From a virus (Duplodnaviria; Heunggongvirae; Uroviricota; Caudoviricetes): DNA of 4,389 nucleotides. Below the pieces are notes generated by a model. The model did no database searches. It saw nothing but the letters and a program-made list of their open reading frames with translations, and was not told where the DNA came from. The translations under genes were made by a program, and so were the position numbers. The stretch covers positions 1 through 4,389 of the IMG/VR virus record IMGVR_UViG_2711768053_000013. One strand, given 5' to 3'. Positions 1,039-4,389 of this stretch are shown in pieces; within the stretch, counting starts at the first letter, position 1, and each line of letters opens with the position of its first letter.

Positions 1039-1066
1039 TTGAAAGCGTCCGGGGTATTCGTATTAT
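1039..1066 (+). promoter_or_regulatory. candidate sigma70 promoter for the tRNA array (-35 TTGAAA, 16-bp spacer, -10 TATTAT)
   Basis: TTGAAA at 1039-1044 and TATTAT at 1061-1066. An A+T-rich tract (about 990-1035) lies upstream, UP-element-like. A GC-rich stretch (GCGCTGCGCC, 1068-1077) follows the -10, resembling the discriminator of stable-RNA promoters. Position fits a start roughly 25 nt before the first tRNA. Confidence 0.4.
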
Positions 1067-1409: not shown

Positions 1410-1544
1410 GCAGAGGACGATAGATACTAGGTTGTGTTTAGGCACTGACACATTTTATGTGGGGCGTTTTTCCTGACTCCTTACCTCGCCCTGTACTGTA
1501 ATGAGAGATATCTGTTGCAGCACCAGTGCCATTTTTTACGCCAC

Positions 1545-1610
1545 CGGAATGGTGCATTATTGGTAGAGATTTGCAATGTCTCTGGCAGGGGCTGGTAATG
1601 CATCATTCCG
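1545..1610. repeat. long imperfect inverted repeat (15-bp arms) with a nested 6-bp hairpin
   Basis: Arm 1 CGGAATGGTGCATTA (1545-1559) and arm 2 TAATGCATCATTCCG (1596-1610) are reverse complements at 14 of 15 positions; the one mismatch is a G-T (G-U in RNA). The 36-nt spacer holds a nested hairpin, AGAGAT (1565-1570) / GTCTCT (1578-1583) around loop TTGCAAT. Confidence 0.7.
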
Positions 1611-1681
1611 ATGTTGTAAGCATCGCTCAGAATAACGTTGAGATTAATCGCGTACTAAGCAAAACCTGGAAATACATCCTT

Positions 1682-1707
1682 AACCGCCGCACTAGGCGGT
1701 TTTTTTT
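1682..1707 (+). terminator. rho-independent terminator candidate
   Basis: GC stem CCGCC (1684-1688) / GGCGG (1695-1699), 6-nt loop GCACTA, followed directly by eight T (1700-1707). Confidence 0.6.
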
Positions 1708-1792
1708 ATTCATTTTTTTCATGGCTCGCTACGGCGGGCCTTTTCATATCCTCGCCACACCCGGCGTATATCACATCAAATAACGCCGCGCA

Positions 1793-1814
1793 AAAGGCAT
1801 CTGCGGGTGCCTTT
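1793..1814 (+). other. stem-loop (7-bp stem AAAGGCA/TGCCTTT, 8-nt loop) without an immediate U-tract
   Basis: AAAGGCA (1793-1799) pairs with TGCCTTT (1808-1814). No T-run follows, so this is not a canonical terminator; it may be a processing or regulatory structure. Confidence 0.3.
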
Positions 1815-1831
1815 GACGGGGTGTTTTTTAC

Positions 1832-1853
1832 GGGCCGCTGGTGGCCCTTTTTT
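1832..1853 (+). terminator. rho-independent terminator candidate immediately upstream of the holin RBS
   Basis: Stem GGGCC (1832-1836) / GGCCC (1843-1847), loop GCTGGT, then TTTTTT (1848-1853). Ends 7 nt before the AGGAGA Shine-Dalgarno of the holin gene. Confidence 0.55.
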
Positions 1854-1871
1854 ATTTACAGGAGAAAAAGT

Positions 1872-2909: not shown

Positions 2910-2938
2910 CAGCTTTTATTCTGCAGGAGAATGTTTTG

Positions 2939-2982
2939 AAAAAAAATAAACAAAAAGCCGCAGCATCGGCAAATGCAGCGGC
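2939..2982 (-). terminator. rho-independent terminator for the minus-strand gene 3042-3311
   Basis: On the minus strand an imperfect GC-rich hairpin (plus-strand 2957-2982: GCCGCAGC...GCAGCGGC, 7 bp with one A-A mismatch, 10-nt loop) is followed by a T-rich run (complement of the A-run at 2939-2956). Confidence 0.55.
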
Positions 2983-3041
2983 TGGCACAAAAACCGAATT
3001 GTCATTTTTTGAGCAAATTCAGTCAGAGATTATGGCAATAT

Positions 3042-3311
3042 TTAATGAAGTAGTCCGTTAATCTCTCCTCTGATGTTCTCTTGTGATTGTTCCTCGCCTG
3101 CCTCAATACCCCTGGCAATCTGGCTGAAAATAACATTGGCGAGCTTGCCATTGTGTCTGGTTAGCAGGCGTTCACCCTCCTGAAGGAATGAATTGGCTAG
3201 CTCCTGCTTGTCGCAGCCAGTGAGGCTTGCGACTTTTAGTGAGAGGTGAGTCAGAGCCATTTGCTGGCTGCTGATTAAGGCGACAATTACTTCCAGTTGC
3301 TCTTTAGTCAT
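3042..3311 (-). CDS. hypothetical protein, 89 aa, predicted soluble and helical; independently expressed accessory gene
   Basis: ATG (complement of 3309-3311) preceded on the minus strand by AAAAAGGAGTGTTC, an AGGAG Shine-Dalgarno with 5-nt spacing. Own terminator downstream (2939-2982). Opposite orientation to the flanking late genes. No motif recognised in MTKEQLEVIVALISSQQMALTHLSLKVASLTGCDKQELANSFLQEGERLLTRHNGKLANVIFSQIARGIEAGEEQSQENIRGEINGLLH. Confidence 0.6.
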   Translation of the reverse strand: MTKEQLEVIVALISSQQMALTHLSLKVASLTGCDKQELANSFLQEGERLLTRHNGKLANVIFSQIARGIEAGEEQSQENIRGEINGLLH

Positions 3312-3395
3312 GAACACTCCTTTTTGCGTTTAGTTCAGCGGGGATTGTATCAAGTGAATTGCAAAATTATGAGCCGAAAGCACTGGACACACAGA
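3312..3395. promoter_or_regulatory. divergent promoter region between the minus-strand 89-aa gene and the lipoprotein gene
   Basis: The 84-bp gap between the two divergent start codons has a minus-strand extended -10 candidate, TGATACAAT (complement of 3344-3352). It overlaps a plus-strand candidate: -35 TTGTAT (3345-3350), 17-bp spacer, -10 TATGAG (3368-3373). Both are weak to moderate matches. Confidence 0.35.
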
Positions 3396-3551
3396 ATGCC
3401 GCGAACGGCGGCGAAATGGGCACTGGTAGCGATACTGGTGCCTTTTTTCCTGGTGGGATGCGTCAGCCTGGATAAAGCGCGCCAGCTTTTCGATACAGCT
3501 TCTCAGGTCTGTGAAATTGTCGACGGTGTTCGGCAGTGTCTGCAGAACTGA
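3396..3551 (+). CDS. small lipoprotein (51-aa precursor; lipobox LVGC; about 30-aa mature peptide with two further Cys)
   Basis: MPRTAAKWALVAILVPFFLVGC has a basic n-region, a hydrophobic h-region and an L-V-G-C lipobox. The mature part CVSLDKARQLFDTASQVCEIVDGVRQCLQN has two more cysteines. An in-frame ATG at 3369 would add nine residues (MSRKHWTHR). Neither start has a strong Shine-Dalgarno. Confidence 0.5.
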   Translation: MPRTAAKWALVAILVPFFLVGCVSLDKARQLFDTASQVCEIVDGVRQCLQN

Positions 3552-3562
3552 TCACCTGTAAA

Positions 3563-3578
3563 AGCAAAATATTTTGCT
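3563..3578. repeat. perfect 16-bp palindrome AGCAAAATATTTTGCT
   Basis: The sequence equals its own reverse complement. It lies 12 nt after the lipoprotein stop, in the 170-bp gap upstream of the 99-aa gene, and is not followed by a T-run on either strand. Confidence 0.6.
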
Positions 3579-3722
3579 GAAAAATGAAGGATGCGCCAGC
3601 GTCCGGAAAGCATGAAATTCTGTGTTTGTGGCTATTCAATAAAATAAATTCTTTCTGTCGCCGCGAATACTCAAATGTTGAACAGTGCCCGGTGCGGCGA
3701 CGGGCTTCGATATCAGGAGACG

Positions 3723-4022
3723 ATGATGGAAAAAACAGAAAACAAACCGATTGTAATTGGTGCTGATGCTGCTCCGTTTATGTTTGAGTTGTCTCAACTG
3801 GTGGAGATGCGCATCAGTGATGAATGGGGTGAGGTTAAAGCCCGCGCGCAGTATGCGGATGGCGAAAACCAGTACTTGATCCACTACAAAGCAGCTGATG
3901 GTCGCGCCACAACGGAGTGGTTTGGTGAGTCAATGCTGGAAGCAACAGAAGATGATCGCCATCCGGGCTGTCCGGTATTTGCCGGTATGAAATTACCGGA
4001 AGGCGCAGTTGTTACTGAGTAA
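3723..4022 (+). CDS. hypothetical small acidic protein (99 aa)
   Basis: Tandem ATG ATG at 3723/3726 preceded by AGGAGA (3714-3719). About 19 Asp/Glu against 9 Lys/Arg, no hydrophobic segment. Same strand as, and directly upstream of, the HNH endonuclease gene. Confidence 0.6.
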   Translation: MMEKTENKPIVIGADAAPFMFELSQLVEMRISDEWGEVKARAQYADGENQYLIHYKAADGRATTEWFGESMLEATEDDRHPGCPVFAGMKLPEGAVVTE

Positions 4023-4083
4023 CAGGCATTACAGCAGCCCTTCAGTGAGGGGCTGCGATAATGCCGGTATTAAGGAGATTCCA

Positions 4084-4389
4084 ATGCCATCACGAATACC
4101 CCGCGCCTGTCGTAAGCGTGGATGTGCAGGCACAACAACAGACAGTTCGGGTTACTGCGATAAGCATCGCGGTGAAGGCTGGGTGCAGCACCAGCGCGGA
4201 CTGAGCCGCCACCAGCGTGGCTATGGCTCAAAATGGACGGTGATTCGTGCCCGTATTCTGAAGCGCGATAAAGGTCTGTGTCAGTTGTGTCTGCGTGTCG
4301 GTGTGGTGAGCGAGGCGAAAACCGTCGACCACATCATCCCGAAAGCGCATGGCGGAACAGACGCAGATAGCAACCTGCAGAGTCTGTGC
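4084..4389 (+). CDS. HNH endonuclease (phage packaging-associated type); 3'-truncated by the window edge
   Basis: ATG at 4084 with AAGGAG (4072-4077) 6 nt upstream. Hand translation MPSRIPRACRKRGCAGTTTDSSGYCDKHRGEGWVQHQRGLSRHQRGYGSKWTVIRARILKRDKGLCQLCLRVGVVSEAKTVDHIIPKAHGGTDADSNLQSLC shows Cys pairs (CxxC...CxxC) and the DHIIPxxxGG...N HNH core. Open to the end of the window. Confidence 0.85.
   Translation, partial: MPSRIPRACRKRGCAGTTTDSSGYCDKHRGEGWVQHQRGLSRHQRGYGSKWTVIRARILKRDKGLCQLCLRVGVVSEAKTVDHIIPKAHGGTDADSNLQSLC

Follow-up and report, generated by a model that had tools for sequence, protein, structure and literature searches.

The subject of this article is the interval at positions 1410-1871 of a 4,389-nucleotide (nt) stretch of phage DNA (IMGVR_UViG_2711768053_000013; hereafter the window), which separates an array of transfer RNA (tRNA) genes from the lysis genes and which I will argue is likely to be a two-part spacer, namely the trailer of the tRNA operon followed by an empty slot for accessory cargo. 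On the plus strand the window carries a DNA methyltransferase gene (32-958, PF01555), four tRNA genes (1099-1409; one with a CAU anticodon, on whose identity ARAGORN and the Prokaryotic Genome Annotation Pipeline, PGAP, differ, then Arg-UCU, Thr-UGU and Gly-UCC), the interval, and then a lysis cassette whose first gene is a holin (1861-2264, counting its ribosome-binding site (RBS) GGAG at 1861-1864, with the ATG at 1872; Pfam Phage_holin_8, 4.1e-22; PHROG 198 holin, 5.9e-42), followed by a second holin gene (2254-2529) and an M15 endolysin gene (2532-2909). The window shares ~93% nucleotide identity with the Shiga toxin (Stx) 2e phage phiP27 (NC_003356) across ~75% of its length, its interval matches a prophage of Escherichia coli ESC818 at 99.8% identity, and I assign the window to a phiP27-like lambdoid prophage. 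In the ESC818 prophage the genes run in the order Q, a 65-amino-acid open reading frame (ORF), methylase, tRNAs, interval, holin, holin, M15 endolysin, HNH, P27-family terminase, and head and tail genes.

The comparison set consisted of ~40 related loci from complete E. coli genomes, phage records and prophage contigs recovered by pattern scan; the scan of viral contigs with GAATGGTGCATTAT was unspecific and BLAST filtering left ~30 true homologues, and the scan of genome contigs with GGCGGTTTTTTTTATTC was too unspecific, returning unrelated terminators from many phyla. Across these loci the interval is a mosaic whose segments vary independently, strain 67-1 being 42% identical to the window over 1410-1534, 78% over a long hairpin (1535-1620) and 100% over 1621-1681. 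As a whole, the interval folds far better than its shuffles (z -5.9 for the plus and -3.6 for the minus strand, with z ~ -2.1 for two coding stretches of the same length used as controls), and a terminator scan of 900-2000 returned 9 terminator-like sites against 1.4 +/- 1.2 in shuffles. Four terminator-like hairpins, all on the plus strand, lie within the interval itself (T1 to T4 below), where an earlier note on this DNA had counted two terminators, and T1, T2 and T4 pass the scan for a GC-rich stem-loop with a T run.

That note had found no convincing ORF in the interval, and the judgement stands. The only sizeable ORF (1526-1783, 85 amino acids) has no family match in Pfam or PHROG, and when the frame is followed from the matching ATG across 32 homologous loci its length is 10, 13, 18, 20-24, 46 or 61-70 codons, so that no ORF is conserved. 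Insertions and deletions in this region are not multiples of three, the reading frame past T1 shifts with the length of the T run, and the only conserved residues, MHH[S/P][D/G]VV, are encoded within the 3' arm of the long hairpin. Because the frame is broken in homologues, the conserved residues are confined to a hairpin arm and no family matches, I treat the interval as non-coding; it would be a transcribed spacer of the late region. The idea that it encodes a small protein, either the 85-residue product or a 61-residue version starting at ATG 1598, draws on a GGGG motif 5' of that ATG, on a frame that several relatives leave uninterrupted, among them a more divergent type in which some substitutions are conservative, and on PGAP annotation of the equivalent ORF in 67-1 (WP_000904532.1) and FDAARGOS_1268 (WP_249941054.1). 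However, in most of the 32 loci stops, insertions or deletions shorten the frame to 10-24 codons, the ORF crosses two terminators, and its start codon sits inside a 34-pair stem, all of which, together with the T-run dependence, the placing of the conserved residues and the missing family matches, makes a protein product highly improbable. PGAP leaves the interval unannotated in nearly all E. coli genomes, and the hypothetical proteins that it does place over hairpin-T1 or T3-T4 (WP_000904532.1, WP_249941054.1 and WP_001298832.1; loci L007 2493-2753, L008 2493-2813 and L009 3018-3143) are probably spurious calls since their frames are not conserved, a point of practical value to those annotating this region.

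The long hairpin (1535-1620, plus strand) is predicted to form 34 pairs with a folding free energy (dG) of -38.2 kcal/mol and z -5.05, none of 200 shuffles folding as well, and its core is the long inverted repeat (arms 1536-1559 and 1596-1619) that had been noticed before. Relatives are only 69-91% identical to the window here, and in 19 distinct sequences 97.7% of cells are paired, as against 36-58% when the partners are slid by 1-3 columns; 15 pairs vary on one side yet stay paired and 5 show compensatory change on both sides. None of 500 shuffles reaches the observed covariation score, a control that overstates the significance because the sequences are related, a weakness from which the slid control is free. 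G.U makes up 21% of the cells and A.C 8 of 646, and the same positions read on the minus strand are paired in just 77.6% of cells; for these reasons I take the hairpin to fold as RNA of the plus strand, the strand of the tRNAs and the holin. The same evidence bears on the proposal that the inverted repeats act as DNA, as recombination boundaries or cruciforms mediating module exchange, for which the mosaic breakpoints at hairpin edges (~1532, 1620, 1711, 1742, 1778 and 1853) speak. Against it are the good pairing of the long hairpin only as plus-strand RNA, the variation of T3, likewise mainly through G.U, and the T runs, which follow the stems 3' on the plus strand only, and homologous recombination alone predicts breakpoints at conserved blocks, so that a DNA-level role seems very unlikely. 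As RNA, the hairpin would most probably serve the processing or the stability of the tRNA precursor, as its conserved pairing within a tRNA trailer suggests, and it could also mark where a small RNA derived from the trailer (1621-1707) begins. It occurs in 390 of 5426 complete E. coli genomes (~7%), in 158 of them as hairpin-C1-T1, where C1 is the segment that follows it in the window; hairpin and T1 are absent from Rfam, and no published description of them was found. The first 300 nt past the tRNAs are not junk: they contain a strand-specific RNA hairpin of conserved structure and a conserved terminator.

What does this hairpin belong to? Upstream of the first tRNA, outside the interval, a putative sigma-70-like promoter, TTGAAA-16-TATTAT (1039-1066, plus strand, 10 of 12 consensus matches), would drive the transcript that the interval ends, and TTGxxx-17-TATTAT is kept at this place in six prophages, including phiP27 and PP5 of E2348/69. 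In 28 of the 28 loci with upstream sequence the hairpin motif is preceded, at 135-144 nt, by genes for tRNA-Thr and tRNA-Gly(UCC) of its own strand, and T1 stands 3' of the hairpin in every locus that reaches far enough, at a distance of 132-145 nt in loci of the C1 type and 217-223 nt in those of the C2 type described below. The terminator itself (1682-1707, plus strand; stem 1682-1701 of 7 pairs, followed by T8; dG -12.4, z -3.97) lies exactly where it had been reported, and its stem ACCGCC/GGCGGT is invariant while the loop varies. Because tRNA-Gly, hairpin and T1 are constantly linked and a promoter-like site precedes the tRNAs, 1410-1707 reads as the 3' trailer of a self-promoted phage tRNA operon, made up of segment A (1410-1534, plus strand, 39-95% identical to relatives with its length kept), the hairpin, C1 and T1. 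This corrects the earlier note, which had viewed the whole tRNA-to-holin interval as the place of cargo: its first ~300 nt, two thirds of it, are trailer and not cargo slot. The alternative offered there, that the interval might hold a small structured RNA, found support, a plus-strand hairpin with conserved pairing, and then T1, being present.

Some smaller observations belong to the tRNA operon. From the -10 element to the first tRNA there are 32 nt in the window, which has a ~20-nt insertion, against 10 nt elsewhere. That first tRNA (1099-1175, anticodon CAT) is called Met by ARAGORN and tRNA-Ile by PGAP for an identical gene, and probably belongs to the Ile2 type that carries lysidine (ileZ/ileX-like), as is typical of Stx phages. 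At 1433-1457 a weak fifth terminator-like hairpin (TGTGT..ACACA with TTTTATG) passes the scan in ESC818 and fails it in the window; the ESC818 stretch is one base shorter, the missing base being read as a T of the window. Two candidates within the trailer were set aside: GGTTGTGTTT (1430-1439), which resembles the R1 region of GcvB but belongs to a poorly conserved segment, and an internal promoter, TTGCAA-17-GGTAAT (1571-1599), which was spotted by eye but does not pass the scan and is missing from relatives.

Segment C1 (1621-1681, plus strand) is largely unstructured and a candidate small-RNA body, in which the blocks UUGAGAUUAAUC and UAAGCAAAACCUGGAAAU are kept in most variants, the second in 8 of 11 distinct variants; mostly unpaired, with conserved blocks and the U8 tail of T1 behind it, it has the sequence form of an Hfq-type small RNA. 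In other prophages C1 is replaced, between the same hairpin and the same terminator, by a ~150-nt STnc100-like segment, C2. It scores 22.9 bits (E 0.003) against STnc100 of Rfam, which is below the cutoff of 47, its core CGGGAGGCACCCG recurs in genuine STnc100 and in PasD2, and an nhmmer profile built from 15 C2 variants matches the genuine STnc100 of E2348/69 (E 0.0013). The C2 trailer may therefore be a divergent, unannotated STnc100 relative fused to the tRNA operon, a resemblance that is suggestive only and that concerns C2, not the C1 of the window. Examples of C2 are found at L009 2593-2789 and L002 ~3395-3570. For the window, only the tRNAs reach the gathering score in Rfam, and within 1410-1871 no family is found at E < 0.05 (the best, Esr41, scores 19.4 bits against a cutoff of 102, and STnc100 gives no match); nothing besides tRNAs emerged from the interval in 12 related loci, and PasA, PasC and PasD (PasD2) of E2348/69 share with the window only chance word matches of 8-12 nt.

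It is possible, if on balance unlikely, that the trailer encodes a trans-acting Hfq-type small RNA of ~85-90 nt (~1621-1707), freed by cleavage at or near the hairpin, with a conserved single-stranded body and T1 with its U8 tail, that would pair with host or phage messenger RNAs and would complement the insulating role proposed below. In its favour, C1 keeps its sequence blocks although it is unstructured, a stem with a U8 tail such as that of T1 is typical of Hfq-binding small RNAs, C2 resembles STnc100/PasD at the same position in other prophages, and validated prophage small RNAs come from this late-region neighbourhood (PMC4104026; PMC8550237; bioRxiv 10.64898/2026.05.13.724894). However, the promoter scan lists no promoter-like site within the interval, so the small RNA would depend on processing, and neither an Rfam family nor similarity to PasA, PasC or PasD speaks for it; the STnc100 likeness belongs to C2 rather than C1, and the reading is built on sequence and predicted fold, with Hfq binding putative. 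The sole target tried, the RBS of the holin (CCUGGAAAU against AUUUACAGG), paired with C1 no better than shuffles did (duplex -16.2 versus -18.2 +/- 3.8), fell outside the eight best of 42 prophage start regions, and was dropped. More tentatively still, tRNA-Gly, spacer, hairpin, exchangeable body and T1 might together form an undescribed class of prophage small-RNA locus, in which the RNA would be cut from the tRNA-operon trailer at the hairpin, hairpin and terminator would be fixed, and the body would be swapped as a cassette, either the 60-nt C1 (~158 of 5426 E. coli genomes) or the ~150-nt C2. If the trailer does yield a small RNA, phage tRNA operons would be linked to the growing set of prophage regulatory RNAs.

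A precedent by layout is 3'ETS-leuZ, a small RNA sponge that is reportedly processed out of the trailer of an E. coli tRNA operon, glyW-cysT-leuZ; like the trailer of the window it belongs to a tRNA-operon trailer that ends at an intrinsic terminator, and it is said to be able to persist as a functional RNA after tRNA processing, whereas the trailer of the window is ~300 nt long with a long hairpin, and the likeness drawn is one of layout. Two groups of prophage small RNAs share the neighbourhood of the interval. Tree et al. (2014, PMC4104026), citing Juhala 2000, describe the region 3' of the Q-antiterminated promoter PR' as a moron insertion site that tolerates insertions, and place in it short small RNA genes whose 3' parts are conserved while their 5' parts vary. 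Members of the AsxR, AgvB and EcOnc family (RF02702, RF02703) share with the window a place after cargo and before the next conserved phage gene, and conserved terminator-containing 3' parts on variable 5' parts; they differ in being convergent, while the four hairpins of the window are all on the plus strand and match nothing in Rfam. According to Pearl Mizrahi et al. (PMC8550237) and Zhu et al. (bioRxiv 10.64898/2026.05.13.724894), Pas small RNAs are found beside TerB, tRNA genes and holin-lysozyme cassettes, and PasA, PasC and PasD of enteropathogenic E. coli prophages, together with STnc100 (RF02076), resemble the present locus in lying in late regions near holin-lysozyme, TerB, DUF3927 and tRNA genes, and in the likeness of the C2 trailer variant of other prophages to STnc100/PasD. 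In contrast, the window shows no similarity to PasA, PasC or PasD2 and no STnc100 match, and PasA and PasC lie on the strand opposite to the holin. The trailer locus thus resembles known prophage small-RNA loci, yet it belongs to no named RNA family.

The second part of the interval, 1712-1853, is by its alignments an empty moron slot, the empty form of the stx2e site, with T2 on its left and T3-T4 on its right. T2 (1723-1745, plus strand; stem 1723-1740 of 7 pairs, followed by TTTTC; dG -14.5, z -4.98) is a terminator-like hairpin that the earlier note missed, and it is kept directly 5' of stxA2e in phiP27 and of TerB in CFIAFB20180511. T3 (1778-1829, plus strand; dG -27.5, z -5.26) is a long 52-nt hairpin with T6 in and after its 3' arm, of which the previously seen stem-loop at 1793-1814 turns out to be the tip, and 19 variants preserve its pairing, for the most part by way of G.U. 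T4 (1832-1853, plus strand; a GC stem of 5-6 pairs at 1832-1847 and T6 at 1848-1853; dG -10.8, z only -1.9) is an intrinsic terminator that indeed ends 7 bases (ATTTACA) before the GGAG of the holin, whose ATG at 1872 lies 19 nt past it. The T3-T4 block is common to two unrelated holin types (Phage_holin_8 and essD; L008, L009 and L011), and homology ends a few bases past the T run of T4, which makes a sharp module boundary.

The cargo junction is located at 1746-1777, where homology breaks against cargo-bearing relatives and where nothing is inserted in the window. Homology to phiP27 breaks between ~1757 and 1778 and resumes at 1778, homology to a prophage with TerB and DUF3927 breaks between 1773 and 1779, and in strain 09-00049 a 180-amino-acid ORF begins right after T2. 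In phiP27 the T2-like hairpin follows the last tRNA, ~55 nt before stxA2e, and then come stxB2e, ORF L27 and T3; because phiP27 aligns on both sides with stx2e and L27 between these two hairpins, I conclude that the window holds the empty stx2e site, and the suggestion that Stx phages carry stx in the equivalent interval holds for phiP27. The distance from T1 to T3 tells the same story of an interval empty of cargo: it is 70 nt in the window, which with six further loci makes up a 70-78 nt class that has T2 only, 262-273 nt where a structured module (~268 nt) without any ORF of at least 50 amino acids is present (25 loci), 707 nt in one locus (L240), 744-751 nt where TerB and DUF3927 are inserted, and 1360 nt where one further ORF joins TerB and DUF3927. 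The accessory content thus differs at the same site between conserved flanks, being stx2e with L27, TerB with DUF3927, the 180-amino-acid ORF with TerB and DUF3927, the ~268-nt module, or nothing. Pieces of T2-T3 are present in 901 of the 5426 complete E. coli genomes, whereas 140 of the 5426 have the contiguous, empty form. The site of gain and loss of Shiga toxin 2e and of other cargo in phiP27-type prophages is hereby narrowed to ~30 bases and its bracketing terminators are identified, which should make it easier to interpret, in isolates from pigs and food, phages that are related to Stx2e phages but lack stx. As for the 262-273-nt module (L005 3295-3562; L008, L009 and ~22 others), it replaces T2 in most related prophages, several of its stems apparently covary, it has no Rfam match, and it looks like another structured RNA in the cargo slot.

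Why should so many terminators precede the lysis genes? Q-antitermination of lambda late transcription is an established model, and the layout here fits it, as the earlier note had supposed: in the ESC818 prophage a Q gene (L003 9105-9926, PF03589 Antiterm, 175 bits) is present, a PR'-like promoter, TTGATT-17-TAAATT, follows directly past its stop (L003 9931-9959; read by eye and not listed by the promoter scan), and two tR'-like terminator hairpins come next (L003 9960-9976 and 10007-10026), all of them sharing their strand with the tRNAs and the lysis genes. These sites stand ~2.3 kb 5' of the interval and outside the window, so that the part of the note that looked for PR', qut and tR' equivalents within the interval by alignment did not hold, while PR'-like and tR'-like sites do exist upstream. 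It is extremely improbable that the interval terminators are themselves the tR' of the late operon, with PR' and qut inside the interval; stacked terminators right before lysis genes do resemble the PR'-tR'-S arrangement of lambda, but 1410-1871 is without a promoter-like site, the PR'-like promoter and its two terminators follow Q directly, and the methylase gene and the tRNA array intervene between the PR'-like site and the interval.

I therefore return to the two-part spacer and consider it probable that the tRNA trailer and the empty cargo slot insulate the lysis genes and are overridden by Q. The tRNA operon would start at 1039-1066 and run through four tRNAs, the ~125-nt variable spacer, the hairpin and the 60-nt C1 to stop at T1. 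In the lysogen, T1 would end this operon, T2-T4 would back up T1 and end the transcription of any inserted cargo, and the stacked terminators would stop transcripts whether they started at the tRNA promoter, at a promoter of the cargo or at a leaky PR', leaving the holin and endolysin genes silent; upon induction, RNA polymerase that Q had modified at PR' would pass the four terminators without stopping, so that the lysis and structural genes are expressed. Several points weigh against this account. Promoter, terminators and read-through rest on consensus matches and on the lambda model; Q, PR' and tR' were seen in the near-identical ESC818 prophage and not in the window itself; the tail of T2 is weak (TTTTC) and the T run of T3 lies partly inside its stem, so that either may be mainly a structural or boundary element; four terminators seem to exceed the apparent need for insulation alone; and insulation leaves the conservation of hairpin pairing and of C1 sequence unexplained.

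The overall architecture, that of the lambdoid layout, is already known, and it is here mapped in detail. Lambda and Stx phages share with this prophage a Q gene with PR'-like and tR'-like sites upstream, a cargo position before the lysis genes, and terminators that Q-modified polymerase would need to override; they differ in that here a methylase and a self-promoted tRNA operon lie between PR' and the slot, and the terminators of the interval are extra, downstream and not tR', the likeness being drawn here from sequence. The phiP27 late region (methylase, tRNAs, stx2e, L27, holin, holin, endolysin) agrees in gene order, in the T2-like hairpin that follows the last tRNA and in the T3-T4 block that precedes the holin, but its tRNAs are limited to tRNA-Ile and tRNA-Arg, the Thr-Gly tRNAs, the long hairpin and T1 are missing, and stxA2e, stxB2e and L27 stand where the window has 32 nt. 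The nmpC-essD region of DLP12 in K-12 has no similarity to the window. In a fragment of the LT-IIb phage SerU-LTIIb (L002) the tRNA-to-holin region is tandemly duplicated (1122-2456 and 3028-4395; holin1a and holin1), and the full hairpin-T1 trailer is kept only in the second copy. Beyond the endolysin, 2910-4389 of the window contains several small ORFs, with both strands represented, and from 4084 a gene for an HNH endonuclease, which in ESC818 comes before the P27-family small terminase.

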